Shown here one piece after another: positions 3,718 to 52,124 of a stretch of 64,000 nt of DNA. Every line of letters starts with the position of its first letter. Within the stretch, counting starts at the first letter, position 1. The position numbers and the translations under genes are program-made. Source of the DNA: Mobula hypostoma (taxonomy: Eukaryota); assembly GCF_963921235.1 (NCBI RefSeq), contig NC_086097.1:57042001-57106000 (forward strand), written 5' to 3'. The notes beneath the pieces are model-generated. The model was not told the origin of the DNA, did no database searches, and saw nothing but the letters and a program-made list of their open reading frames with translations.

Positions 3718-4627
3718 GCAAACATGCAGATGCTGGAATTTCAAGCAACACACATAAAAGTTGCTGGTGAACGCAGTAGGCCAGCAGCATCTATAGGAAG
3801 AGGTACAGTTGACGTTTTGGGCTGAGACCCTTCGTCAGGACTAATTGAAAGAAGAGCTACTAAGAGATTTGAAAGTGGGAGGGGGAGACCCAAAATGATA
3901 GGAGAAGACAGGAGAGGGAGGGATGGAGCCAAGAGCTGGACAGTTGATTGGCAAAAGGGATATGAGAGGATCATAACATATCAGAATGGGAATGGGACGT
4001 GGAATTAAAATGTGTGGCAGACATATCAGAATGGGAACGGGATATATCCTCGCCTTCTATATATTGGCGAGACCCGACGCAGACTGGGAGACCGTTTGGC
4101 TGAACACCTAGGCTCTGTCTGCCAGAGAAAGCAGGATCTCCCAGTGGCCACACATTTTAATTCCACGTCCCATTCCCATTCTGATATGTCTATCCACGGC
4201 CTCCTCTACTGTAAAGATGAAGCCACACTCAGGTTGGAGGAACAACACCTTATATTTCATCTGGGTAGCCTCCAACCTGATGGCAGAACATTGACTTCTA
4301 ACTTCCACTAATGCCCCACCTCCCCCTCATACCCCATCCGTTATTGCCCATCCTCTGGGCTTCCCCCTTCCCCCTTTCTTTCTCCCTAGGCCTCCCGTCC
4401 TATGATCCTCTCATATCCCTTTTGCCAATCACCTGTCCAGCTCTTGGCTCCATCCCTCCCCCTCCTGTCTTCTCCTATCATTTTGGATCTCCCCCTCCCC
4501 CTCCCACTTTCAAACCTCTTACTAGCTCTTCCTTCAGTTAGTCCTGACGAGGGGTCTCGGCCCGAAACATTGACTGTACCTCTTCCTATAGATGCTGCAT
4601 TCACCAGCAACTTTTATGTGTGTTACA
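3718..4627 (+). mobile_element. Penelope-like element with an inverted copy of its terminal repeat
   Basis: GIY-YIG ORF 4012-4311; 3741-3975 is the reverse complement of about 4390-4625; flanking direct repeat ggtttactcat at 3707-3717 and 4628-4638. Confidence 0.88.
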
Positions 4628-4944
4628 GGTTTACTCATAGTTTTTTTTTCTAGTATTGAAATGGCACGTAAACATAATGGAAAATTAAGCATTAACACTT
4701 GGATAATTTTCAGTGTTCTGAGATGCCTTTAATCCTGACACAACGTCATCCATATTTACCAAGTCAGCAATTGTAGGATTCCCCAATGAAGAGTGTTATG
4801 TTTTGTAACTTCAAAACATTAAATTAATTCAAAGGAAGACACAGGAGTTCGAAATGTGTCTAATTTGTTGTTTTACTTTAAGTGAGGTGCACCCGTATCA
4901 CGTGGTTGCATGATGATGTATTCAAGTCACACATTTTCACACAT

Positions 4945-6249: not shown

Positions 6250-6395
6250 CTTTTCTCAGCTTTTCTCTCTGGATCTACTTCAATCTTTGTTTCTCTTCTG
6301 GCTCTAGCTCTTTCTCTCTCTTTTTCCTTCCTCACATTCCTTCTCTCTTTCATGCCATTTTCTTTCTCAGTCACGTTTGTTCTATCTCTTTCCTC
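6250..6395 (-). pseudogene. RBM25: Continuation of the processed RBM25 fragment (RE/RD-rich region) beyond the L1 insertion
   Basis: Minus strand reads RNKD*SRSREKS*E, compared with DRNKDRSRSREKSR in RBM25; the stops fit CGA>TGA decay. Confidence 0.72.
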
Positions 6396-6945
6396 TTTTT
6401 TTAAATTTTATTTTTATTTGGATAAGGAGTTCACAATTATCATGTACTTTTTTCACACATATAACCTTTTCCATTTTTTTATATGTATAAAACTACAATT
6501 ATTTATACATTCTTAAGTACACATTGAGATGATATAAAAGCAAAATAAACATTTAAATAGATAGTTATGTACTGTGGTAAATCTAACCTATTAGGCTAAG
6601 TAATGAAATTAATTGTTAAGAAAAATGGTAATAATAGTTTCCATACAACCCTTCTGTACCATTTCCACTGGTCCAAAATGTTGCATACAAGCCTATATAC
6701 CAACCATTGTAGGTGTTTATATCCCAATTTGTTCGTGCTTGTTCCTGCCCGCAGACATAATTATCCAATCCCTATGTACTTATTTACTTAATTTTTTCAT
6801 TTTTTTTTTATCCCTTTCCCAAATCTTTCCCTTTACTTGTGTTAAATCTCTATTTTCCAAAAAAAAACAACAAACATTTAGACTAGGGGTGCTTACATTA
6901 GCAATATTACTGTCTTGTTGAGAAGAGCAATATAAATCATTAGAG

Positions 6946-9900
6946 TCATCTAAAGTCTGCTCGCATTGGGGTTATATATTCAATCCATTTATTCCAGATT
7001 TGATAAAATGTTTCTTTTTGAGTTCTCAGGGAGTAGGTCAACTTCTCCATTTTAAATATTTCCAAGATAATTTCGTACCAATCTTCTAATGTAGGTGGTA
7101 TTGGATTTAGCCATTTTCTAGTGATTGATTTCTTACTTGCCGCTAAGAGGGCCTGCAGCAACTTTATATCTTCCTTCTGTTCAAGGAACAATACATGCCC
7201 CAAATAGAGCGTCTCAAAGTTCAGAGGTATCTGGGACCTAAGTACCTTAACTAATGTTCTATGAATACCTTCCCAAAATAGACTTAATTTAGGGCAATCC
7301 CAGAAAATATGAAAATGATTTGCCTCCTTAGAGCCGCACCTTCTCCAACACATCACATTTGTATCTTTATATTTTTCCTGATATGGGGTCTTGAAGTATC
7401 TTATAATGTTTTTCCAACAATGTTCTCTCCAAGTCAAAGAATTAGTCGAGGACCATTGAAAGCTGCAGATTTTCCCCCAAGCCTCCTCTGAAAGTACCAA
7501 CCCCGCTTCTTTCTCCCACTTCTCTTTAATATACAGTGTATTTACATTTTTAGCATGGGAGAGTGCATTATATAGGCGAGAAACTGATTTACTAGGTATT
7601 GAACTGCAAGCCGAATTCAGAATCTTGAAAAATTCTAATTCTACTGTTGATAGGTCTGTATATCTACAACTCTGGTTAACATAGTTTCGTATTTGAAGGT
7701 ACCTAAAAAAGTCATTATGTTCTAGGCCATGTTTGTCCTGCAGGATTTGGAAACTTTGTAATACTCTTATCTATAAATGAGAGGTAGGTTGTAAGACCTT
7801 TCTTTATCCATAGCTCAAATCTTTTATCTCCTCTGTTGGGAAGGAATTCGGTATCATATGCACACCATCTAAAGAGTTTTAGCATGTTATTAATTCCACA
7901 TGAATTAACCACCTTCTGCCATACTTTTAATGTAAGATTTATCCAAGCATTATTAAATTTTTCCAACTGGGCCATCAATCCTTTGTCAGCTATTGAGGCC
8001 TGAAGAGGAAAACTGTCAACTAATCCAAATTCTATTTCCTTCCATCTAGCCTTATATTCCCTATTACACCAATATAACAGAGAGGTTATCTGTGAGGCAT
8101 AAAAATAATTTCTCAGGCAAGGAAGAACCATACCTCCTCTTTCCTTCCCTAACTGTAAGGTGTTATATTGAATTCTAGGTTTCCTTCCTTGCCAAATGAA
8201 GCGGGAAATCCATTTGTCCCATTCCCTGAATTGATTATCATCCACCTCCACTGGTAAAGTACGGAAAAGATATAATAACCGAGGAAGAATATTCATTTTT
8301 ATAGTATTTATCCTTGAATTTAAACTTAAAAAGGGGATAAGATTCCATCTATGCATATCTGCTTTTATCTCTGAGATTAATGGCCCATAATTTACCTGTG
8401 ACAGTGTTGAAAGATCCTTCGGCAGGGTTATTCCTAAATATTTTAATGATTTAGCTTCCCACTTAAGATCGTATGTATCCTGCAATTTTTTGGATGGTGT
8501 ATAATTTAGGGACATAACCTGCGTTTTCTTTACATTTATTTTATAACCTGATATTTTCCCAAAGTCATCCAACAGTGTAAACAATCCTATAAATGATTTT
8601 TCTGGTTCACTCAGATAGACCAAAACATCATCTGCGAATAACGCCACTTTCTGTTCAATCCCTGCCACCTTGATACCCTTTACGATTTCGCTCTGTCTTA
8701 TTAGTTGGGCAAGTGGTTCAATATATAGCGCAAAAAGGAGAGGAGAAATTGGGCATCCCTGTCTAGTGCCTCTCTCTAAAATGAAGGAGTCAGAGAGGTC
8801 CCCATTTATCTTAATTCGGGCTGTTGGGCTGTCATATAGAGTCTGAATTACTTTAATAAACCTTTCCTGAAAGCCGAATCTTCCTAACACTCTGTATAGG
8901 AATGCCCAACTAACCGAATCAAAAGCTTTCTCAGCGTCCAATCCTACTACCATTGTCTCTGTCTCGTTCTTATTAACCTGTTCTAATATGTGCAGAGTTC
9001 TCCTTATGTTGTCCTGTGTTTGTCTTTGTTGAATAAATCCAGTCTGGTCTAAATGGATTAGGCCAGGTAAAAGCTTTTCCAATCTGCGCGCTAATATAGA
9101 TGTAAATAGTTTGTAATCTAAATTAAGAACACTAATTGGCCGATAATTGCCACATTCTAGTTTATCTTTACCCTCTTTAGGAATAACTGAAATAATCGCT
9201 TCTCTCCAGGAAGGTGGAGTTTCTCCTCTCTGCAAGATCCAATTAAAGGTGTTAAGTAGTAATGGGGCTAACTGTGTCTTCAGGGACTTGTACCACTCTG
9301 AGGTAAACCCATCAGAACCCGGGGACTTTCCAGCCTTTAACCTAGAGATGGCCACGTTCAGTTCTTTGACAGTTACTGGTTCTAATAAACTTTCATTTTG
9401 TAAATCTGTAAGTTTAGGTAGATCTAAAAAATTCAATACACTGTCTATATAGGGCTCATTGGGGGCCCAGGGTTGGGAGTACAGCTCTCGATAATACGTT
9501 TCAAAACTCTCTTGAATTTTCCCTATTGTACTCTCCACAAGCTTTGTCTTTGGATTCTTTATTTTATGAATTGTATTGTCTGCTTGTTGTTTTCGTAATT
9601 TATATGCTAATAATCTAGCTGATTTACCTCCTACTTCATAATTCTTTTGTCTCAGGTAAAGAAAGTTTCTTTGAGTTTCCAACGTATAAATATCATCAAT
9701 TTCACTTTGCAATTTCCTAATTCCCTGTTTTCGGTTTGAATTACTTTTGTTGCTATCTCCAACTTGAAGTTGTTTTAATTTTCCTTGAAGGTCTGCTAAT
9801 TTTTGTGCATTGATTTTTTTCATGTGAGTAGTAATGGAAATAATTTTCCCTCTCAGTACAGCTTTCAATGTATCCCATAAAATCACTGGTGATGTTTCTC

Positions 9901-10732
9901 CCGTGTCATTAAGGTCTAGATATTCTTTGATTTCTCCCCTTAATCTCTCCATTACTTTTGGGTTATTAAGTATATGTGAGTTTAGCCTCCATAGTGTTTT
10001 CCTCATTTTCCTTTCCAGGATTAGAGACATAGAGACTGGGCTATGATCCGACAGATCAATTGTTGCAATATTACAGTTTTTTATCCTGAGTCTATCTGTA
10101 TTAAAGATAAAGAAATAGTCTATCCTTGAATAGGCTGAATGAGGGAAAGAGTAATATGTATAATCTTTACTACTAGGGTGTAATTCCCTCCAGACATCTA
10201 TAATTCCCAACTCCTCCATCAATGAATTCACTTTCCGAGTCAGAGGTTTATTCTGAGTAACTATTCTTGAAGAATCTAATATAGGATTTAATCTAATATT
10301 AAAATCCCCTCCACAAATTACTACCCCTTGAGAACTGACCATTAGGTCAAAAATGTGTCTATAAAATGACCATTCACTACCTGGAGGAGCATAAACATTC
10401 AGCAATGTTATTTCTGTACCTTCTATTCTTCCTGTGATTTTTACAAACCGTCCTTCTTTGTCTCTAGTCTCTGAAATATGTTCATAATTAAGAGTACTTG
10501 ATATTAAAGTAGCTACCCCTCTTTTGTGACTCAATTTATATGATGAATAAAATACATGCTTAAAGCCCATTCTTTTTAATTTTCCATGTTCAGATTGGCT
10601 CATATGTGTTTCCTGGAGGAAAGCTATTTGTGCCCTCTCTTTTTTCAATTTAGACATAATCTTATTTCTTTTAATTGGATTCAAAACCCCATTAACATTA
10701 TAGGAAATTATTTTTACCAATTCAGTTTGCAT
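6946..10732 (-). pseudogene. L1 ORF2 (APE endonuclease, RT, CCHC) with one frameshift near 7765
   Basis: SYNVNG, LQETH, GGDFN, SDH; GKSPGSDG, NYRPISVLN, QGCPISPLLF, FADD; the shifted frame continues to CWRRCGSKEANHFHIFWDC. Confidence 0.92.
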
Positions 10733-11095
10733 TTTTCTCTAGTAGAAAAAAAAGCACTCTCCTTTTCTAACCAAACAGTAAGCAATCCCTTCTCAACAGT
10801 AAACCAAGACATATAACCACACCCTAGACATTTCTGAACGTATAACATTTGAAAATTTTCCCCGACTTCCCACAGTGAGGCCTGAGCACCGACCCGCCTC
10901 AGTTCAGAGGGATAACCTCTATCTTCACCATGTGTTAGAGGGCCCTCAGCAGTTTGAATTATCATAGAGAATTTTCTCCTATTTATGTCTCGACCATATT
11001 GCTATCATTCAAGTTATTCCGCCTAGATTATTTTCAGTTACCAGTTTTCATTTTACTTTTAAGTCCGATTTACTCTTTTCAGTCATTTCTCTTAA

Positions 11096-12080
11096 TTAAT
11101 CTGTATTCTCTGTACATTCGCGTCTGAATATTTGCAGCTTTTCCTTGTAGTTTGACACTCTGTTTCAAGTGGAGCGTCCTCGCCCCACTAACTGCCACGA
11201 CTTCTGCCGAATCCTCTCCAGTAGCGACTCCGGTTGGGTGATAACTTTAATAGGTAGTCCCCGGTCCGCCAGGTCCGACGTTGCCTCCTCCACCGTAGCG
11301 TAAGTTTTTGTCCCTTCGTCGTAAAAGACTCTCAGCCGAGCTGGATACAGGGTCTGGAATCTGATGTTGTTTTCCTTCAGGACTCTCCGTGTTTCCGTAT
11401 ATTCCTTCCGTCTGGCAAGAATCCCCGGTGCGTAGTCGTGGTCTAAACTGATTTTACAGTTGTTCCACATGAAACCTTTCTTTTGCCATACTCTTTTAAG
11501 CACCTCTTCCTTCGTTCTGTAACTGAGAAATCTGATCAGAATCGATCTGGGCTGGGCGCCTGCCGGAGGCTGTGGTGCCAACGTGCGGTGAGCCCTTTCT
11601 ATCTGTAGGTCTTTTGCGGCCGGTATATCAAGGTTCTCTCTAAGCAGCTTCTCCACGAAGGGAATCATCAATCCGGGTTTACCTTCGGTTCCTTCGGGAA
11701 CTCCGTAGATCCTCACATTTTCCCTTTTCGAGCGGCCTTCTTGATCTATTAGTTTCCACTGGAGTTGGTCTTGTAGCTTCAGCATTTCTGCTATCACTTC
11801 CTCGGCATTTTGTAGCTTCTCTTCAATTCCAACAATCCTCGCTTCGGCTTCATCTATCCGTGAGTTAGTTTTTACTATTTCTCCTTTAATATCTTCCAGC
11901 TGCTTGCTGTTATCTTGTCGGAACTCGCGAATCTCTCCGAGAATCAAAGACTGAGTCACCGATTTCCCCCTCATTATCTCCGTCCTGGCTTGCCGTGGGA
12001 GAGCTAGGCCCGTCGCCTTGCTGCATCTCTTTATGTTTATCAGCCTTCGAAGCGGACTTTTTATTCTTGTTCTTAGACAT
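11096..12080 (-). pseudogene. L1 ORF1 (coiled coil plus RNA-binding), disrupted by a 1-nt frameshift near 11965 and a TGA at 11165-11167
   Basis: EGRSKRENVRIYGVPEG, IERAHR, PRSILIRFL, YPARLRV; upstream MSKNKNKK in another frame; YKEKLQIFRR after the stop. Confidence 0.8.
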
Positions 12081-12227
12081 CATCCTTGCCCCTTTTATTA
12101 ATATAGTTATGCAATATTAAGTATTTGTCTAAATTCGATTTTGGGGCAGTTTACCTTCTTTTTTGTCGAGAGACCTTTTCCTTACGCCGCCATTCCCTTG
12201 ATGACCCAGAAGTCCTCCTCTTTCCTC

Positions 12228-12745
12228 CTTTTCAACTTCTTGTCTTTCTTTTTCTTGCCTTCTGTTTTCTTTTTTCTGGGATCTTCTTTCTCGATCTTTG
12301 GGAAAGTACGTTTAGTTCACTGGAGTATTCCCTTGTTAATCCTTCTATTGCTCCCTTAAAGATCTGATCTCTCCCTGTGGTTTTCTCATCCACAACATGA
12401 TCTGATGAATCCTCTGTTTTCATATCTCCATTATCTACTTTTACAAGCAGCTTATTGTCTTCCACTTGAAATTCATGCAGTAACCTTAATGCATGCAGAG
12501 TATATTATAGTTCTTTATACTCACAAAAGGTGAATGATTGCAACTTTCCTGAAGCTTGTTGAACTTTCTTACAGCTTAAAACCAAGTCACATTTTGCCTG
12601 ATTAATATATCACAAGCTTTCTCAGATATGTTAACTTCAAAAACTGTTGTAATCGGACCACTGTTTTTGTCACTTTCCCGATTCCAATATGGTCCAATAT
12701 GCTTTCTCGCCAGAGGCACAGAGGTTGGCACCGATACCTGTTTAG
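12228..12745 (-). pseudogene. RBM25: Processed RBM25 fragment (RRM region) inside LTR element copy 1
   Basis: SGPITTVFEVNISEKACDILIRQ, KLLVKVD, RDQIFKGAIEGLTREYSSELN match RBM25; contiguous with no introns; frameshifted. Confidence 0.85.
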
Positions 12746-15700
12746 CCTCTGTTGGGCAATGGTTCATGGTGTACAGCATGGAGACAGTTGTAGCATCATC
12801 CAGTACCTTAATTTGCTTTCAGTCTCTATTGCAGGGAATGTGGCACGCATCTCTAATCATGTTGTAGTTGTCTCAGCCATTCACATCCCCACAATGCTGG
12901 TCCTCCTGTTTTACCACATACAAGGTGCTCAGTGTGGCTTGCTGGTTGTTGTATTTCACTTTTATGAATGTCATTCCCACAGGAGTTACCTTTTCTCCAG
13001 TTGGCTATGTACAGGCTTCAGTTCAATATCTTTGTAATGCTGTTCAAACTTATTTTGTGGAATAACTGAAACAGCTAAGCCAATGTTCAATTCTATTTTA
13101 ATTAATTTTCTGTTCACTTCTGGTATAAGCCATATTGTTTGTGTACTTTTAATTTTCCACACTTATTTATTAAGGCCGCACAGTCCTGTGTCACCTTCAT
13201 TGTTATCAGATTATCACAGTGTGCAGATTAGTGTTCTTTTTGAAACTGCAACTTGACTTTGTATCTTTTCCTCATCCCTGTGCAGTCCATTTATTTTTGT
13301 CTGCCTGACATGCTCCATGTATGTGTCCAACTTCGTTGCATTTTCTGTAGGTTTGGTCCTTAAACCTGCATTGGTCTCATGTATGTGAGCCACTGCCACA
13401 ACGGTAACACAATTTGTTCAGCCAGACCAGTTTCTGTTAAGACGTTACAATTTTGTTCATGCTCAATTTCATTCTTGACTGCAACTCAATTGCTTCTCTG
13501 TCTGCAGTTTCCATTGATACAGTGATTTCAGCTGCTCTTTTAAATGTAAGTTGTGCTTCAGTTGTAAGGTTCCACAAACTAAATGATCTCTCAGTTCATC
13601 ATTAAGACTATTATCGAACTGACAATGCTCAATTTCTTCAATTCAACCACATACCCTGAAATGGACTCCCCTTCCTTTTGATTCTGCTTATGAAACCTAA
13701 AGCGTTCTGTAAGCAAGAATGGCTTTGGTTTTAAATGTTCCTGTAGTACTCTGCCTCTGACAATATCAGCAAAGCTCATTTCTGCTGGTTGGTTTGGAGC
13801 AGTCAAACTTTGAAGCAAACTGTATGCCTTCAAATACAGTACACTCATCAAAATTGGTACCGATTTCCAATTGGCTCTTTCATTTGCTTCAGAATACTGC
13901 TCAATTTGCTCAATATATAAAATCTATTATCTGTTGTGTAATCTAACATGTCAGTCTTTCCAAAGTAGGCAGTCAATTCTGCTTTTTTTAAAATTATTAC
14001 TATTGCCCATTACTCACTCTTTCTGAACCAATGGATTCTTTAGCTTACTGCCTTTTTTAAAAAAACACTTGATTGTCTCTGCACATATGGCTGTTACTTG
14101 CCGGTCCTTGGTGCGTTTCAACAAGTTGGTAATCGTCTTGGGTTCATTTTAAAATACATCGTCACCACTGGCATGGTTTTTAACTTCAAAACATTAAACT
14201 AATTGAAAGGAAGACATGAGAGCCCAAAATATGAGACTAACTTCAGGTTTTACTTGAAGCAAGGAGCTCACATATCAAAGTTCAAAGTACATTTATTATC
14301 AATGTATGTATACATTATACAACCTTGAGATTATTCTGCTTACAAGTAGCCACAAAACAAGAAACCCAAAAAGAAAAAAAACGAATTGTACAAACAAGAA
14401 AAACAATCAAACAGCATTCAGAAAGAAATGGAGTCCGTAGATACGAAGACCGGAGCAGTGAGCAGAACTGGCCAACCCTCACCTCCGGTCCCGACACCCT
14501 GCCTTTTCAATCCATTCAGTCTGGCGTTTAAATCATCCAAACATCAAGCCATTCCATGCTTAAAGACCCGAGCCCTGTCGCATCAATATAGTCTGGGGCT
14601 GGACCCCACCGCCACATTGGGGCCCGTGTCCGACCTTTCCAAATCGGCCTGGTGCAAAACTCCTCCACTCTGATTTTTCTCCACTTTGCATGTCCAGACT
14701 CCATCTCGAACATGCCTTGACCCCTCTCTTCTTTCCAACTGTGATAAAACTGCTGAACGGATCCTGACCCGGATCTGGGCCGTACCCTCCAAATATCCGG
14801 ACCTGCTTCTTGGTTTTTTTTGCACTACCTTACTTTCCCTTTTCTATTTTCTATTTATGATTTATAATTTAAATTTTTAATATTTACTATCGATTTGTGC
14901 TCCAGGGAGCGGGAAGTGCAGAATCAAATATCGCTGTGATGATCATACGTTCTAGTATCAATTGTTTGGCGACAATAAAGTAAAGTATTTCTTGCTTTGG
15001 GAACCATCGGTAAGCTGTCGCTCATCCTCAGTAGCACCGTCTTAAACATGGTGAAGTATGGCGTATGCAATTCACGTATATTTACATATAAGCAGTTATG
15101 AATTATTGAAATGAACAAGAATGCTAAATCAAACAATATATTTACAAGACTACTTAAATATTCAATATACAGCAAAGAGGATGGCTGAATGGGATTACAG
15201 GTTTGGCACAGAGAATAAATGACATTGTAATTTTGGAGGTTTCCACTAAAAATGAATGGTCTTGCTCATTTCCTTTTAAAGGCAGTGATGCAACAACGAA
15301 TGGGATATTTCCCAGTTTTCCACTCTCCCTTCCCAATTTGTTTGCTAGAATAGCAGTCCACAAACACTGTTTCTTCTCTATACCTTTTTCAGGTTGCACT
15401 TCTTCTTGTATGAATTCCATGCACAAGGCACGGTTGAAACTTCTCATGTCTCATGTAATGTAAAATAGTTACAAAAATCTGCAGATGCTGCAAGTGCCCA
15501 GATTGGACAGCACCTGTTTTTTTTAAAAAGAGCAATAGTGTTAGCGTTTCAAATTGATGACTCTAATAAATTATTTGATAGCAGAAGCAGAATCAGGTTT
15601 AATATCACTGCCATATGTCATGAAATTTGGTGTTTTTCAACTGCAGTACTTTGCAATATATAATAAAAAATATAAATTACAATGAAATGTATATAAAAAT

Positions 15701-16560
15701 TAAATTATGTAAATAGTGCAAAAAGAGAGGAAAAAATATTGAGGTAGTGTTCACTGCTTCATTGACCATTCAGATGTGTGATGGCGGAGGGGAAGAAGCT
15801 GTTCCTGATATGATGAGTGTGTGTCTTCAGGCACTTGTATCTCCTCCTTGGTGGTAGTGAAGAGAAGAGGGCATCGCCTGGGTGGTGGAGGTCCTTAATG
15901 ATGCATGCCGCCTTTTTGATGCATCTCCTTTTGAAGGTGTTCTTTCTTGTTGGGGTGGCTTGTGTCCACTGAGTTTACATAAGAGAGGAATTTTTTTCAT
16001 TTTCTATTTTCTTACAAAAAGTTGTTTGTAAGGCTATGTGCAAGCCTCAGCTAATTCCTTGCACCACAAATGGTGAATTTACCCTGAAGTTTTCCAGTTC
16101 AGTCAGGTAACTAGTCTCTTATCTGATAGCCATGCATTAATTTCTGCCGGAGCTTAATCTTGTAGACCTTATTTTCATACATTGAATTATTGACACTGAG
16201 TTACAATAAGTATTTGAACATTTGTTTTCCAAATATATTATAACTTAATGGTTCACATCCTTTTAACTGGAGTCTCAATTCCAGTGCTCCCTTTAAACTT
16301 CATAGATTCATTGCAAACTATATTATTCCACAGTGTAACATTTATTTTAAAGGTGAATTAAAAGTGTCATGGAATACTGATACAGCAACAGTTTGGCAAA
16401 TCTGTTCTTAAAAGGATTGTGGAACTTGCCACAAATTAGTGAAGTAGGTTTATTCAACAAATTTCTGTTGAAGTTTTTCTAATAAGTTACAAAATTGACT
16501 TTTCATTTTACGAATTGGTGAATTAATTGTACTGAATTTTAATAAATTACTCACCTTTAG

Positions 16561-16832
16561 GGCCGAAGGAGAAATACTACGCCTGCCAAAAAAGAAATCA
16601 AAGAAACAAGTAAAGAAGAAATGTTGAATGAGGAAAACAATAAAGAAAATAAAGACTCTAAAGAAGACTTGAAAAAACAAGAGAAAGAAATGGATGCAGC
16701 ACAGCAGAAAAGTACATCAGTGTCCAAAAATAGAGGAGAGAAGAATAAGAAAGATGAACCTGAGAAGAAATCTGAGGAAGGAGAGGAATATAATGAAGGC
16801 AGAGAAGAAGACCATGGGAATAGACAAAACAA
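16561..16832 (+). CDS. ARID4A: ARID4A internal coding exon (first one visible in the window; upstream exons not found)
   Basis: ctttag acceptor; reads GRRRNTTPAKKEIKE...GNRQN; AA|gtatgt donor in phase 2, matching the next exon. Confidence 0.8.
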
Positions 16833-17445
16833 GTATGTGTTGCATTAAATCTTGTTCTTTTGCATGTTAAATGTAAATGTGTTTATGGTGAAGTATACTT
16901 TGTTCAAAAGAATATTTTAAAAGTGCTTTGTTCAGAGGTAGTATTCAAGAAAATATGAGCTACTTGTGTATTTGTAAAACATAATCTTGTTGCTTGAATT
17001 TTCTTGGACAAGAATTTTTTTTTAACTTAAAGGCTGTTGTGAATGATCTTAAAACTAAAAACTTTGGGTTTTTTTTGTTGCCTTTCACAAGGTAAGGATG
17101 CCCATAAACATTTCCCTCGCCTTGACTTTCTCCTTCTGTGCAGGGATATGTGGTAAACAATTTGCACACAGCACAATCTCATAAAGCAAGGTAACTGACT
17201 CGTAAATCTGTCATGGCATTGGTCAAGAAATATTACGATAGGATGCAAACAAATTCGTGGCAATCCATCAGCCTGAGATCTTTCACATTCTCTGAGTAAA
17301 CCTGCGTTCTTTGATGCTGGGGCAATTGTTCTGCAGAACAGTAGCACATATAATAATTTTATGATTGTGGAGATCTACAAATACATTTGGCAAATGTGCA
17401 ATGTCACATTTTTGTTCATAATTTTCTCCCTTTTTCATTAAATAG

Positions 17446-17724
17446 AGAAGCAGATGAAAGTAAAAAAGATGGCGATGATGAGGAGGAAGATGGGGACGAG
17501 GAGGAAGATGACAATGAAGGAGAGGAGGAAGAGGAGGAAGAAGAAGAAGAAGAGGAAGATGAAGAGGAAGATAATGAATTTGAACGATTCCCTTCTGGAA
17601 CAAAAGTTAAAGTAAAATATGGGCGTGGGAAAAATCAGAAAATCTATGAAGCCAATATTAGAAATTCTGAAGTTGACGATGGGGAGGTGGTCTATTTGGT
17701 GCATTACTATGGTTGGAATACAAG
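17446..17724 (+). CDS. ARID4A: ARID4A exon: acidic tract and start of chromo-barrel domain
   Basis: aatag acceptor; poly-E/D then [19 protein letters not shown]...[12 protein letters not shown]|gtaata donor. Confidence 0.93.
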
Positions 17725-18629
17725 GTAATAGAGCTGGTTAAAAAGTTATTACAATTAATTTAATTTATTTCTATATTGTTACAGTAAGGACTAAGTGGAA
17801 ATTTTCTTAAAACACAACATTGGTCTCTGTTTTAAAACTTACTTGGTTAACCTATAAATATCTCTGCTGCAGTATGAACTAGTACAAGTATGGCCAGAAA
17901 TGGAATTACCAGAACATTACTTTGAAGGTTATGTCTGTGCTTTTTCCCCCTCTTATGAAAACTAAGGTCTCTAATGACAGAAAGTGAAAGAAAAAATAAA
18001 CAACTTAATATCCTAGGAAAGTTATGAATAAATGTCAGAAAGCTTCCAGATTTTTTTTAAATGTATAAAATTAAATGGAAAGCCTTAAAATGAACCGACA
18101 TTATTTGCCATATAAGATGCAGTAAAAAGAAACACCCAGTGTGACATTTCTGTGGGCAAAATCACCTTATTAATGAGAGAGGTCAGAGGAGAATGGCCAG
18201 AGTGGTTTAAGCTGACAGAAGATACCTAATAAGATGGTTACTGAATGTTTATTACATTACAAGTGTCACCCCAAACAAATTAATAGAATTGGGGCAAACA
18301 CACGGCTTGGACTGAACATTGATATTGGATAGAAAGCAAATTGTGGAATTAAGAGATCTTTCTGGTCTTGACTTGTGAAGGTCTGCGGGGTCTGGTTTTT
18401 TGGTTCCATCTATTCACAATCAATATTAATTATTTTGCTAAGGTGACCAAATGTCATATTTTCAAGTTTCCTGATGATGCTAGACTAGGTGAGATTACAA
18501 GTCCAGAGGAGTATGTGAAGAAACTACAGGCCATATGAACAAGCAGAGTGTGTGGCCAAGAATATGGCAGATAGAATATCACGTGGAAAAATGTGAAGTG
18601 ATCGTCTTTGGAATTGGAATTCAATCCTG

Positions 18630-20600
18630 ATAAGAATCATGTTTATTATCTCTGTGAAATTTGTTGTATTGTGGCAGTAGTATTGTGCAAGACACAGAAG
18701 TTACTATAAGTTACCTGAACGAAGTGCAAAAGAGGAATAACAAGGTAGTGTTCATGGATTCATAGACCATTCAGAATCAGAAATCTGATGGCAGGGAGGA
18801 AGAAACTGTTCCTAAAAAGTTGAATGTGGGTTTTCATGCTCCTTTACCTCTTCCCCGATTGTAGGGGAATGTCCTGGATAGTTGGGTCCTTTAGTGATGA
18901 ATATTGCCTTCTTGAGGCACTGCCCCTTGAAGATGTTCTTGATGGTGGTGAGGATTGTGCCCGTGCTGGAAATAGCTGAGTCTAAAACCTTCTGCAAACT
19001 CTTTTGATCTTGCACAATGGTATCTCTATACCAGCCAGTGATCCAACCAGTCAGAATGCTTTCCTCTGTAGAAATTTGCAAGAGTCTTTGATCTATCACA
19101 TCTCTTCAAATTCATAAGGAATTAGTGTACCTGCCATGCCTTTTTCATGATTGCATCAATGTGGTGAAAGAATAAGTCAACATGATAGATCATCACAATA
19201 GAATATCAACACCCAGGATAGATCCGCTGACATGTTGATGCCCATAAACTTGCAGCTGACCTTTCCCAACTTGTGTTCTTCCAACTTCTCTTTCCTGAAC
19301 TCTGTGAACAGTCCCTCGGTTTTGCTATTGTTCCATGTGAGTTATTGTTGTGATACTTTTGAACAAGCTGATCTATCTCACTTCTGTATGCCTCCTTATC
19401 ATCATTTGTGATTCTGCTAACACCAGTGGTATCATTGATGAATTTATAGACAGTGTTTGAGCTGTGCCTAGCCACACAGTTATGAGTGCAGACAGAGTAT
19501 AGCAGTGGGCTGGCTAAGCATGCATTCTTGATTGCACCTGTATTGATTGTCAATAAGGAGATGTTACTATTGATCCACGTTTGCTGTGTTCTCTCAATGA
19601 GGAGGTCGATGATCCGGTTGCTCAGGGGCTCAGGTTTTAAAACTTTTAAATTAGCACTGAGGAGATGATGATGTTGAATGCAGAACTGTAATCAGTACAG
19701 CACCTTGATGATGAATATACGCCATTATCTAGGTGCTCCAAAGCTGAGTAGAGAGCCAGTGAGACTGCATCCACTGTGGACTTGTTGTAGCAGAGCCAAG
19801 CTGCAGTGGGTTCAGGTTCTTGCTCAGGCTGGAATAAATTCTGGCCATTACCCAACCCCTCAATGCATGTCATCACAATAGATGTGATTGCTACTGGTCT
19901 GTAGTTGTTCATGCAGTTCGCCATGCACTTCTTGCACACCGGCATGATTGATGTCCTTTGAAGCAGGTGAGAACCTCCTGATTGCAGCAGTGAGAGATTG
20001 AACATGTCCTTTAACACACCCAGCCAGTTGATTGGCACAGGGTTTCAGCACCCAGCCAAGTATACCATCAGGATCTGATCCCTTGGTAATGGTTCACCCT
20101 TTTGAAGGATGTTCTGACCTCAGTCTCTGAGACCGAGATTACAGGATTGCCAGAAACAGTGGGAGTTTACACAGATGTAGCATTATTCTCCCTTTCTAAG
20201 TGTGCATGAGAGGTTTTAAGCTATTAGGAAGTGAGGTGTCACTGTCATTTATGCTGTTAGGTTTGTCTTTATAGGAAGTAAAGGCATGCACCCCTGCCCC
20301 AGCTGTTAATGCATCTTTTTGTGTCTAATTTCACATGGAATTACCTTTTTGTTCTCATGATGACCTTCAGTAGGTTGTTCCTGGACTCCCTTCGAGGTTC
20401 TGCATCGCTTGTGAACACCAGAGATCTAGCCCTTGACAGAATGCGAATATCCTGGTTCATCCAGGGCTTCTAGTTTGGAAAGATTCACTATGTTCTCAAA
20501 GGCACATACTTATCCATGCAGTTCTTGATGAAGTGACAGATCTGAAGATAAATTCCTGAATTGTTCCAATCCACTGATTCAAAGCAGTCTTGTAAATGCT
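18630..20600 (-). mobile_element. Degenerate Rex1/Babar LINE
   Basis: NNYRPVAITSIVM, DYSSAFN, SPLLYS, ESILTGWITGWY fragments. Confidence 0.75.
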
Positions 20601-21300
20601 TAGAAACACAAAGAATTCTGCTGATACTGGGAAACTGGAGGAAATCAGGTCAGGCAGCATCTATGGAGGAAAATACTGTCAAAATTATTATTTTGCCATG
20701 TTATTGGCAAGTTTGGCACCATTATGACTTTTTGTTTGATCATAATTCTTTTCACATGCTATGTCATTGCTTTTGAGTAATGAAAATGCACACAATGCAT
20801 CAGCAAATGCATTTTGACAGTAATTTAGTTTTATATTCCATTTGGATCATTTTGACCTCTTCTGTGTTCCTTGACATGGCTGTTAGCCAAGTTCTTTAAG
20901 GTGTATTACCAAGTATGAAACTGGGATGTTGAAATAGGTTTTCTGCTTCTTATTCTTGCAGTGGTTATTGTTTGCCAGTAGATTATTAGCACTGAAGTCT
21001 CAGTTCACAATCTTAACTTCAAAAATTCAATACTTGAAACCTTGAGTCTGAGTATATTTTAATTTAAGTAGCTAATACAAATGATCCAGCAATATTGCGT
21101 TCAACCTGAGCACAGCTTTCAGTTGAACAACTGCCACTTCAGTTGCAGATTATATCTTAAACCCTGAAATGCACTGACAGTTGCTGGAGAAAGATCTCAG
21201 CCGAGTGTGTTTAATTAATGCTCTAATGGATGTGAATATTCATTTTTTAGAAGTGGCCTTAGATCAACAGCTACTAAGTTTCATCAGCTTTTACCTACAG

Positions 21301-48619: not shown

Positions 48620-48790
48620 ACAAGGGAGGATTCGCGCCGCGCGCTTCTTCCAGTCATAAAGATGGCGGCGGCCAAACTCTCACGCCGACTGAGGGCAGAG
48701 GGCAGCTGGGGTGAGGTTGACGTCCGCCCGGTTACACTTCCGGGCCGGCTACGGGGGTGGTGTCGAAACCGACAGCGGGTCGGAATGCTG
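48620..48790 (+). promoter_or_regulatory. CpG-rich promoter/5' region of the TOMM20-like gene with YY1 and ETS/GABP motifs
   Basis: AAGATGGCGGC (YY1 consensus) at 48659-48669; ACTTCCGG at 48736-48743; local CpG enrichment. Confidence 0.65.
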
Positions 48791-48911
48791 CAGGTTGGGA
48801 GGACGGGGGTAATCGTGGCCGGAGTCTTTGGGGCTGCATTCATCGGTTACTGCATATATTTTGACAGGAAAAGAAGAAGAGCCCCTGATTTCAGAGTAAA
48901 ATTGCGCGAAA
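48785..48911 (+). CDS. TOMM20L: TOMM20-family (TOMM20L-position) mitochondrial import receptor, coding exon 1; later exons not identified in the window
   Basis: MLQVGRTGVIVAGVFGAAFIGYCIYFDRKRRRAPDFRVKLRE is the TOM20 signal anchor; A|gtaagt donor; lies downstream of ARID4A on the same strand. The paralog name rests on synteny. Confidence 0.85.
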
Positions 48912-49551
48912 GTAAGTGTTGCTCCGCCCACTGTTACCAGCGACAACTTGGTATTACCATTTAATGGTGGCGGCCGGGACGTGTGGGAGAAGCCCCGGCG
49001 GCATTTCTCAAACTTGTTCTGGTTTCGGCGAAGTAGCAAGATTCTGGGAGAGTAGTGTCAGAGATAAATGCTGGAAATCCGATATCTGCTGGAAGCAGTA
49101 AGTAGGTCAGGGAGAATCCTGGTAAACAGTTAATGCTTCAGGTGGAAGGGAACAGGCTGTTTCCAGCATTTTCCATTATATTTATAGCAGCGTACAACTA
49201 TTTTATAAAGTAAATTATGTACCCGATTCAGGATTGAAATAAGCGCGTTTTGCATCAGCATCTACTTTTTATCGTAAATTTTGGCTAATTCTAAAACATA
49301 CTGTCAGAATTTATTCAATGTAGAATAATTGGATCGGTAGGAAATAGAGGTTATTGCATGAGGATTCACAGGTCAAGGACTGATGCAGCTTGATTAGCTT
49401 TGGAAGTTTATACAAGTGTACCGAAATACAAGAAAATATATGAACTGCAAGCTTCTGTTCAATTATCCATAGAACTTGGAGGAGTTGTAGGTGATGCAGC
49501 ACAGCTAAAGAAAAGTCCCCGGAGGTGCATATTCAGGAGACCTACCAGGAT

Positions 49552-51982
49552 TGTTGTGTGTTTAATATTTGAGAAATATTGTAAATATTTTGATTATGTA
49601 TTCTGTTGTTTACATCATGCGCTGCGGTGAAAGTGCGTAAATGGCATAGGTCATCACGCCGCCACGTCATATGCGCACACCTTGCTTAAAGTACTAAATT
49701 GAGCTAAACTAAGACTCATGTCTTTTAGCTCCCTTGTTTTCCTTTCAGTTAGTTTTATGTTTTGGAGTTTAAAAACGTAACAGTGGCGATGGGGCATTTT
49801 TAAAACAAACCCGAGACGACAACCTACTTGCTGAAACCCAGCGAGAAACAGTTGAATTTTTAAAAAATCCGCGATTCCATTTCTAAATGGACATTAAACA
49901 CCACCTCACCAGCTTTCTGCACCACTTTTTAAATATTTAATATACATATATACACTTTTCCCTATACTTATCATGTGTTGTACTGCTGCCGCAACGTTAA
50001 CACATTTCACGACGTATACCGGTGGTGTAAACTTGACTCTGAAAAAGCGCAGTACTTTTTTTTCCTCATCGGAGCAGCACGTTTCTTTCACAAAAGTAAG
50101 GAGATCGATTTTTAAAAAAAGACAGAAAGCGGGTTAATAAACAGTGAGTACCGGGTGATTTTTTTTTAAGAGTAGAAATGGCTGGCTACCTTGGAAAGAC
50201 TGATGTATTTCATCACACAAGAGATAAAATTAATGATGCACTGATAGATCGTTTAGTTTGTTGAATCTTACAAGAAAACATTCAAAAACGGTTCCTAACT
50301 GAAGCACAACAAAAGAGCAGTTGAAATTGCTGCATTAATAGAAACAGCAGACAGCAATTGAGTTGCAGTTGGGAATAAAAGTGACTGCACTGGGAAGAGA
50401 AAAAGATAAAAAGTCAAAATTCAGTTTTTAAGAAGAGCTGTTGATAAAATCTGATGAGAGTGACATAGGACCGAGTAGCCTTCAGATTTCAATGTGAAAA
50501 CTAATAATAGCCTATATTAATAAATGTGGCTTACACCAAAAGTAAATGGCAAGTTAATTAAAATGGAATTGGACACTGGCTGAGCTGTTTGTCATTCCAC
50601 AGTGTGAGTTTGAATTGAAGTTTGCAGATATCCAACTAAGAACTGGTACTGGAGCAAAGCTAACTCCTGTGGGAATGGCATTTGGAGCAGTGAGATCTAA
50701 CAACCGACAAGCCACATTGTGCTTGTATGCGTTTAGAAACGGGAGGGCCAGCAGTGTGGGGACGTGATTACCAACCACAACTTGATTGGAGCTCTGCTCA
50801 TTAGTTGCATCCCTTGCAAGAGAGTCAGCTGAATGCAAACTAAGATAGGTACTGGGTGATGTCACAATTGTCTCCGTGCTGCACATCATGAACAGAAGGC
50901 AAATGGGTGTTGGTGCCAACCTCTGTGCTTCTGGTTGGAAAGCAAATGGGATCAAGAAAGGAACATGTTGCTCAGAAATCATGAAAGTGACAAAAGCAAT
51001 GGTCCAACTACAACTGCTTTTGTAGGCAACGTATCTGAGAAAGCTTCTGATAATAATCATGCAGTTACTTGCAAAATGCAGTTTGGTTTTAAGCTGGAAG
51101 AGAGTTTAGGAGCTTCAGGAAAGTTGCAAACATTGTTTTTTTTTGTGAGTATAAAGAGCCAGAATCTACACTGCGTGCATTAAGGCAAGAATTTCAAGTG
51201 TGAGACAAAAAGCAAACCATGAAGAGAGATCAGATTGTGAAGGGAGCAGTAGAAGGATCAATAGGAGAATACTCCAGTGAATTAAATGCACCTTCCCAAG
51301 ATCAAGATGCAGAAAATAGAAAAAAAGAGGATGCCTTAAGTGCTATGGAAATGGAAGAAAATAAACGAGACAATTTCTTGAAATTAGCAAATGCAGAGGT
51401 ATTGACAAGAAAGTAGAAGGAAAAGGAAGACAAGAAATAGAAAAGGAGAGATAGAGAATGAGTGAGAGAGAAGGAATGTGAAACAGAAGTAGTGCAGGAT
51501 AAGGAGAAAAGTTGTGACTGGGAGAGAAGCGAGGATCAATGTAGATCCAGAGAATAAAGCTAAGGAAAGGTGAAGAAAGGTGTTCAGATCTGTCAGAACC
51601 ACTTCTGGCAGTCTCAGAGTCAACTCCTACAAACACCATGGAGGAGGCCCCAGAGCCTGAGATTGTATATGTATTATATAGTATATTGTATATGTAAGTT
51701 GTGATGCATTCTACATTGAGGTGGAGGTAATAGCTGAGAAAGGGGAAGAGTTGTGTATTTAATATTAAAGTAATATTTGAGCAACACTAATATATTGTTT
51801 GATTAAGCATTCTTCGTTTACATATTATCGGTTAAATGTAAGTACGTGAATGCAATGCGTCATGCTGCAATGTCATATGCGTGCGCCTTGCTTAAAGTAA
51901 AAACTGAACCAAGACTTGCACCCCTCGGCTCCCTTGTTTTCCTTTCAATTAGTTTTATATTTTGGAGTTACAAAACATAACA
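49552..51982 (+). mobile_element. Non-autonomous Gypsy-type LTR retrotransposon, copy 2, carrying an RBM25-derived segment
   Basis: 5' LTR 49552-49782 (tgttg...taaca); PBS-like gtggcgatg; gag MAGYLGKTD and DRLVC remnants; protease KMELDTG; PPT gagaaaggggaagag; 3' LTR about 51750-51982; TSD aggat at 49547-49551 and 51983-51987. Confidence 0.9.
50905..51570 (+). pseudogene. RBM25: Processed RBM25 fragment inside LTR element copy 2
   Basis: VLVPTSV..VGKQMG, GPTTTAFVGNVSEKASD, QLLAKCSLVLSWKRV, GASGKLQ, CEYKEPESTLRALR, RDQIVKGAVEGSIGEYSSELNAPSQ, MEMEENKRD; intronless and frameshifted. Confidence 0.9.
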
Positions 51983-52124
51983 AGGATGACTAGCTTTTAT
52001 TTTATTTCAGTGGGGTGTGTTATGTGGGATTGGAGTAGGTGTGGGAAACTTTAGACAGAATGAGAGGGTGTGTAGTTCATGAAGTGCTGCATTATTTTGC
52101 ATTATTCACACTGATCCTGAGGTA

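Follow-up and report, generated by a model that had tools for sequence, protein, structure and literature searches.

The 64,000-nucleotide stretch of Mobula hypostoma DNA considered here (the window) contains two LTR retrotransposon copies in which the RT/RNaseH/integrase region is replaced by intron-free RBM25 mRNA sequence, and this raises the questions of how a piece of host messenger came to lie between the protease and the end of pol, whether it was captured once, and whether the founder could have encoded a fused protein. In the self-comparison of the window there is a single long homology, of 50230-51982 with 13605-4794 on the minus strand, and none between the flanks of copies A and B. 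Copy A occupies 49552-51982 (+), between AGGAT repeats (49547-49551 and 51983-51987), and copy B occupies 15174-4794 (−), between CTCTT repeats (15175-15179 and 4789-4793). Each has LTRs of the form TG..CA and its own 5-bp target duplication (2/2), and because the duplications are different and the flanks unrelated, A and B are separate insertions. Copy A lies directly past TOMM20 exon 1 (48782-48910; MAS20 domain, E 2e-11) in the orientation of TOMM20 and is intronic; ARID4B-like exons are found across 16564-17728, with a Tudor-knot exon near 17357-17728 that we take to be ARID4B.

Organisms B and C have the copy A insertion too, as seen in contigs bridging its left edge (X5 record 17), its right edge (X15 record 16), and its internal junctions (X5 records 19 and 22, X15 record 12); two further records (X5 record 24, X15 record 15) were left uncounted because one side of the bridge had fewer than 31 letters. 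The 5' and 3' LTRs of copy A (49552-49782 and 51749-51982) are 79% identical (173/219), corresponding to a K2P of 0.25; the LTR pairs of copy B give 0.25-0.29, and LTR pieces of A compared with those of B give 0.15-0.27. By these divergences both copies are old and of similar age. Stops and frameshifts are present in the gag, protease, and cargo of each, and neither has an open fused reading frame. No RT or integrase was found in copy A or copy B, in which gag and protease precede the cargo and a short tail, a polypurine tract, and an LTR follow it.

In copy A, the 5' LTR is followed by a putative primer-binding-site position (49783-49795; GTGGCGATG), and a similar string stands after the LTR ends in family contigs, which have loose ends behind 51982. 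The gag remnant (50178-50520) has, by alignment, large internal deletions relative to copy B, and there are loose ends before 50230. It is succeeded by a stretch disrupted by stops and frameshifts (50524-50860), in which an ELDTG motif can be read and which we take to be a protease remnant with a post-protease linker ending in VLGD. The 5' junction zone and first cargo segment (50861-50906) consist of an RBM25 exon end (ATT) and a 16-residue segment of a shark isoform, with 11 nt lost. The cargo from VLVPT onward (50907-51578) comprises the whole RRM, a linker, and the RE-rich part to EKDKK, without introns, and in alignment with the shark RBM25 protein P0041 it has six frameshifts and one stop within host residues 26-251, with 127 of 170 aligned codons identical. 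The 3' junction and a P/S/T/E-rich pol tail (51572-51667) overlap the cargo by an AAGAAA that fits either its end or the start of the tail; there is a loose end at 51666, after which ∼120 nt are missing from copy A. The polypurine tract is at 51736-51748. An unrelated repeat, absent from copy B, appears to have been inserted in the leader of copy A at 49860-50080 and has high depth at 49926-50021. Contigs of a run presumed to be RNA have a depth of 3-5 on intronic pieces of copy A, which we do not count as evidence of expression.

Copy B, on the minus strand throughout, is more extended as a result of later insertions. Its 5' LTR (15174-14170) is in two pieces, 15174-15060 and 14277-14170, split by ∼780 nt of nested repeats at 15059-14278, and is followed by a broken gag, protease remnant, and linker (13990-12795). 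The first part of the cargo (12794-12218) starts at ATTVSM in the frame of KVLDD, and the last part (6395-6241) ends in RSREKS..EKDKK; copy B is non-contiguous because a 5.8-kb L1-type LINE (12217-6396), flanked by a 10-bp target duplication, splits the RE-rich cargo. In the frameshift-aware alignment with P0041, 134 of 192 aligned codons are identical. The pol tail and 3' untranslated part (6246-6040) match the family loose ends behind 51666, and the 3' LTR (5958-4794) is again in two pieces around a later insert, 5958-5866 and 4945-4794, with K2P values of 0.25 and 0.29 relative to the 5' LTR pieces. The LINE within the purine-rich cargo is near full-length and young, with an ORF1 of 304 codons from stop to stop and an ORF2 that is open for 1007 codons and then shifted.

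A third copy of the first cargo segment, 54 nt in length (5865-5812), lies within the 3' LTR of copy B, at the 5' end of a truncated LINE. It is identical to 12775-12722 at 48 of 54 positions (E 1e-14 to 4e-14), with the phase and spacing of copy B, and is absent from two other copies of the same LINE (26219, 34682). This piece resembles a templated insertion that accompanied integration of the LINE, and would then be younger than copy B. Further repeats in the window, at 1563-2630 and 3725-4629, are Penelope-like (GIY-YIG, E 3e-4), with direct and inverted copies of ∼300 nt.

The assignment of the element to a class is tentative. In copy B the gag region resembles PNMA (E 0.012) and the zinc knuckle zf-CCHC_5 (E 0.002), both short of the Pfam cut-off, and is assigned to Retrotrans_gag by the Atlas (0.91, with 117 shared features); the protease has no match in Pfam, PDB (noise only), or the Atlas. 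The LTR features are those of a Gypsy-type element, and the name Gypsy is in part presumed. The parent element was not encountered in the collections searched: a protein search with a 40-residue protease piece returned one candidate and none that scored; among viral contigs, one of 11 stretches passed with the gag query (a phage false positive) and none of nine with the protease query; and DNA patterns gave no hits in metagenomes or viral contigs and one chance 20-mer in prokaryote genomes. Similarly, database searches, which detect fused forms weakly, returned no protein joining gag or protease to RBM25; one yielded a single match among 14 candidates, and another yielded seven, of which six were RBM25-like and one was a bacterial repeat.

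The identity of the cargo is established by protein comparison. Of 78 candidates retrieved with a 102-residue frame of copy B, 36 are RBM25 proteins (best E 1e-29), the best match being a shark protein, and the initial annotation was correct in describing an RBM25 cargo in sense with gag. The cargo covers the whole RRM (PF00076 at residues 72-140 of P0041) and the RE-rich part; the Pro-rich start, the PWI end, and the 3' two thirds of RBM25 are absent. Degraded pieces of the cargo are not recognized by Pfam, and PDB gives weak RRM matches only. Exon edges, placed by protein comparison from database ORFs that run into introns, are located before VLVPT (P0045, P0046), after QLLA (6/6 RBM25-like matches), after KEKKEE (P0004), and after DTHK (P0041). 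The cargo crosses these four edges without introns, the DTHK edge in copy A only, there being a deletion at this site in copy B. In neither copy is there a poly(A) or a target duplication at the ends of the cargo, which stops short of the end of the coding sequence and is continued by the pol tail. In shark RBM25 (P0004, P0040, P0041), VLVPT is preceded by 16 residues that are in frame and include an ATG of their own, and an alternative acceptor adds CFTQ; this segment is lacking in two bony-fish RBM25 proteins, P0017 and P0020, and no report of it is among the papers listed by a literature search. Both copies carry the segment in the form of P0040/P0041, without the CFTQ extension (50870-50906 in A and 12785-12738 in B), and judged by these residues the captured mRNA is an uncommon isoform that includes it.

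Alignment of the two copies is gap-free from GTACTGG through GTCTCC into RBM25, and at this end, as at the 3' end, they have the same seams, so that the shared junction regions proposed in the initial annotation are present in both. Their placement has to be revised. RBM25 had been considered to begin near VLVPT, with the preceding acaa..gtctcc assigned to Gypsy, but the latter is already cargo, and RBM25 starts at about 50861 in A and 12794 in B, 46-57 nt before VLVPT. Shark P0040 begins with MLYTMNRCPTEGKQ ahead of VLVPT and P0041 has MAPATTVSMLYTMNRCPTEGKQ there, and copy B reads KVLDDATTVSMLYTMNHCPTEAKQVSVPT within one frame. At host residues 12-30, 17 of 19 residues of copy B are identical to P0041, and none of 11 at residues 1-11; for copy A the corresponding values are 6 of 11 at residues 12-22 and 0 of 11 at residues 1-11. 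Since identity with P0041 begins at residue 12, with none before it, the 5' switch is placed at ∼12794 (B) and ∼50861 (A). The ungapped score of copy B is 90, against 46 for the third piece and at most 28 for the background of 127,882 six-frame positions. That the 45 nt before VLVPT might be a leftover of RT was considered and rejected, as P0004, P0040, and P0041 show them to be RBM25. The seam lies three codons before the probable exon edge (ATT|VSM).

The spacing of landmarks around this seam bears on the reading frame of the founder. From TPVGM of the protease to VLxD there are 186 and 180 nt in the two copies, from VLxD to VS 21 nt in both, and from VS to VPT 54 nt in copy B, as in the host, and 43 nt in copy A, which has lost 11 nt just after the seam. 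The net phase from the protease anchor to the 5' junction is therefore 0 in 2/2 copies, and copy B is open for 80 codons across the seam; we take the linker frame to be the pol frame. On these grounds the founder was probably an in-frame fusion at its 5' junction. Microhomology at the seams is the hallmark of template switching. The candidate zones for it, for which the host is known as protein only, are the Ala-Thr codons at 12794-12789 for this seam and AAGAAA (51573-51578 in A, 6246-6241 in B) for the other. Related polyproteins lead us to assume that the parent has Ala-Thr at the 5' seam, which would give a short in-frame microhomology.

At the 3' end, the copies are 80% identical along 144 nt (E 6e-29), and in each of them AAGAAAGGTG follows the RSREK motif at a distance of 30 nt. 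The similarity to RBM25, previously thought to end after RSREKS, continues to EKDKK, and the pol tail begins near 51572-51578 in A and 6246-6241 in B, which is 35 nt ahead of the 51609 initially proposed; a start at 51572 is indicated by other family contigs, which join there. The AAGAAA is compatible with the KK of RBM25 and with the start of a tail that reads EERC..EEAPEPEIV in copy A, the EERC..EEAPE frame being presumably that of pol. In both copies the RBM25 frame is shifted relative to the EERC frame at this seam, and further along the tail frame is restored in copy B, which is 5 nt shorter (63 rather than 68 nt). None of the best 12 of 102 indels between copy A and family contigs falls at the spacing of the 3' seam, which is a weak hint that the spacing in copy A is the usual one. 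The 3' junction was thus probably out of frame, and the founder protein would have ended in an off-frame tail.

It should be noted that the 3' junction is not uniform family-wide, because a form with a shorter cargo exists. In all four contig runs, cargo ending at ∼51308-51328 is joined to the tail start at 51572-51595 (15 of 1369 joints listed), with 1-5 contigs per listed joint and run; here the lysine-rich exon end after SSELNAPS is the last of the cargo and meets the same tail start as in the long form. The short form may have arisen by a later deletion or by a second return switch; a deletion between AAGAAAG repeats and a second return would give the same product. The single capture envisaged in the initial annotation therefore holds for copies A and B, which share the 5' and 3' seams and the isoform and have separate target duplications and no flank homology, but for the family as a whole there are at least two forms of the 3' end.

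The family is abundant. Each large DNA run has ∼19,500-20,900 contigs on the 2851-nt stretch, and cargo sites at 50929-51264 are covered by from 57 to at least 128 contigs per listed site, in three organisms. In run X1 the summed depth is 6,329-19,775 in bins of the RRM region and up to 48,000 over gag/protease and the tail, compared with 11-16 in two left flank bins; contig depth is not a copy number, and the low depth at 51366-51557 and 50694-50885, where copy A is divergent or of low complexity, does not signify absence. Such depth cannot have come from a single RBM25 gene, and there are many family contigs in the three organisms.

Selection on the cargo can be addressed by comparing the two copies. 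For A versus B, dN/dS is 0.72 (bootstrap 95% interval 0.44-1.21; dN 0.29, dS 0.41) from 144 codon pairs in this one pair, and differences are distributed 29/39/43 by codon position. This ratio, proposed in the initial annotation as a test of the cargo, shows no selection; it fits neutral decay, with an interval that includes 1, and two copies cannot reveal selection on master lineages. Four cargo frameshifts of copy A (50979, 51052, 51107, 51136) fall at indels between A and other family contigs, and because these contigs differ there they arose in copy A after its insertion, which fits a founder with an open cargo. Copies A and B share departures from P0041 at 5 of 144 codons, two of which are also shared with another shark; being so few, and partly shared in this way, they give no independent support for one origin. 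Of the Gag-Pro-RBM25 founder suggested in the initial annotation, the in-frame 5' junction is thus moderately supported by 2/2 copies, but functional constraint on the cargo is not demonstrated.

These observations are probably best explained by a double template switch within the particle, with an anatomy like that described by Tan 2016, and by later spread in trans of the resulting non-autonomous family. An autonomous Gypsy-like LTR retrotransposon of an ancestral cartilaginous fish would have co-packaged spliced RBM25 mRNA, and reverse transcription would have departed from the element RNA where the integrase tail begins with a purine-rich stretch, copied ∼1 kb of RBM25 from the RE-rich part back through the RRM and the segment of the shark isoform into the final codons of the preceding exon, and returned to the element RNA just after the protease. 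The product would have kept the LTRs, primer site, polypurine tract, gag, and protease and lost RT/RNaseH/integrase, and the chimera would have spread long ago with the help of proteins supplied in trans. Its founder, with the 5' seam in frame, probably could make a Gag-Pro-RRM-RE protein ending in the off-frame tail, and the cargo most likely rode along without selection. Splicing at the 5' seam is possible, because the seam is within 9 nt of the probable exon edge, and capture may conceivably have taken two steps as in transforming retroviruses, a read-through transcript being joined to RBM25 near the exon edge before one switch, or may have involved a repeated 3' return to the same purine-rich site. 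The position of the seam three codons before ATT|VSM, the start of P0004 and P0040 at the M of the segment, the end of the short form at the exon edge after KEKKEE, and the preference for return sites near exon junctions reported for BLASTOPIA in the available text of PMC5131818 would accord with such a history. However, copy B matches the host in the ATT codons before the edge, which a splice to the edge would not bring, and a deletion in the long form, between its AAGAAAG repeats, accounts equally well for the short form, so that we regard this course as unlikely.

We attach a similarly low probability to the proposal that the cargo was useful and that this accounts for the expansion. Splicing control, export, or packaging of the element RNA would then have been improved either by a Gag-Pro-RBM25(RRM+RE) protein, which the protease would cut as it does Pol, or by the purine-rich RNA as such. 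The phase of 0 and the open frame of copy B, the inclusion of a whole RRM, a dN/dS point estimate below 1, the distribution of differences by codon position, and the attribution of four frameshifts to later damage in copy A speak for such a role, but an in-frame seam has a chance probability of 1/3, or more with a codon-like shared stretch, the interval of dN/dS contains 1, a form with a shorter cargo, lacking the RE part, persists too, and, according to the accessible text of PMC5131818, non-autonomous elements often outbreed their parents without benefit from a cargo. In its fullest version, in which the element gained a host RRM and RE domain in the place of RT that was released by the protease, was selected on master copies, aided RNA processing or packaging, and drove spread to hundreds or more copies in cartilaginous fishes, the proposal is likewise doubtful. 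Least probable by far is an RBM25 processed pseudogene made by a LINE within an LTR element, or a local inverted duplication of A and B. The window is rich in LINEs, of the L1 type and others, and the two copies lie within 64 kb in opposite orientations, but the cargo has no poly(A) and no surrounding target duplication, lacks the 3' two thirds of RBM25, and replaces the pol core, and local duplication is largely refuted by the different target duplications and unrelated flanks.

An old family of this kind, with many copies in related species, constitutes a natural experiment: it permits a test of whether a host domain, once captured, is carried passively or maintained by selection on the element, and of how seams change after capture. 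The RBM25-bearing family also documents an old RBM25 splice form with a date attached, and its copies will complicate the annotation of RBM25 and the counting of retrocopies in genomes of cartilaginous fishes. The top retrocopy parents of cartilaginous fishes listed in the accessible part of a recent preprint (bioRxiv 10.64898/2026.06.26.734816) are MIPOL1, SUDS3, SDF2L1, SLU7, and ZNF276, and some of these may be similar element-amplified captures; RBM is absent from the main text of that preprint. Among the papers listed by a literature search, with subscription papers and repeat databases outside its scope, there was no description of an RBM25-bearing LTR family, RBM25 being absent from the 15 listed of 626 matches to one query, and the portions of PMC3597677 and PMC6431247 available to us make no mention of one.

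The closest parallels are the LTR-mediated retrocopies of metazoans (Tan 2016, PMC5131818), which, as far as the accessible text describes them, likewise consist of a partial, sense, intron-free mRNA piece that replaces internal ORFs between two retained LTRs, without poly(A) or a cargo target duplication, have switch points near exon junctions, and include further rounds of retrotransposition with shared switch points. In the fly set of that study, microsimilarity was present at 25 of 29 junctions. These retrocopies are young and occupy one to few insertion sites, whereas the RBM25 family is old (K2P 0.25), abundant, and present in three organisms. Maize Bs1, from the available descriptions (PMC5131818, PMC13317346), is also an LTR element with host cDNA, shared switch points, and a chimeric frame, but Bs1 draws on three donor genes, occurs in 1-5 copies, and has an ORF that is transcribed and translated, whereas the RBM25 family has one donor and many copies, those examined being broken. 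The crocodilian elements CrocERV29, with KIT-ligand, and CrocERV31, with nectin3, are, in the accessible part of Chong et al. 2014 (PMC4299795), old vertebrate LTR elements that captured host mRNA and multiplied afterward; they differ in being retroviral, with about nine and six copies and intact cargo ORFs under purifying selection, whereas the RBM25 element is Gypsy-like and carries a fragment for which selection is not shown. The capture mechanism is thus already known, from animal cases with few copies; the RBM25 hybrid multiplied widely, and its first seam probably preserved the frame.
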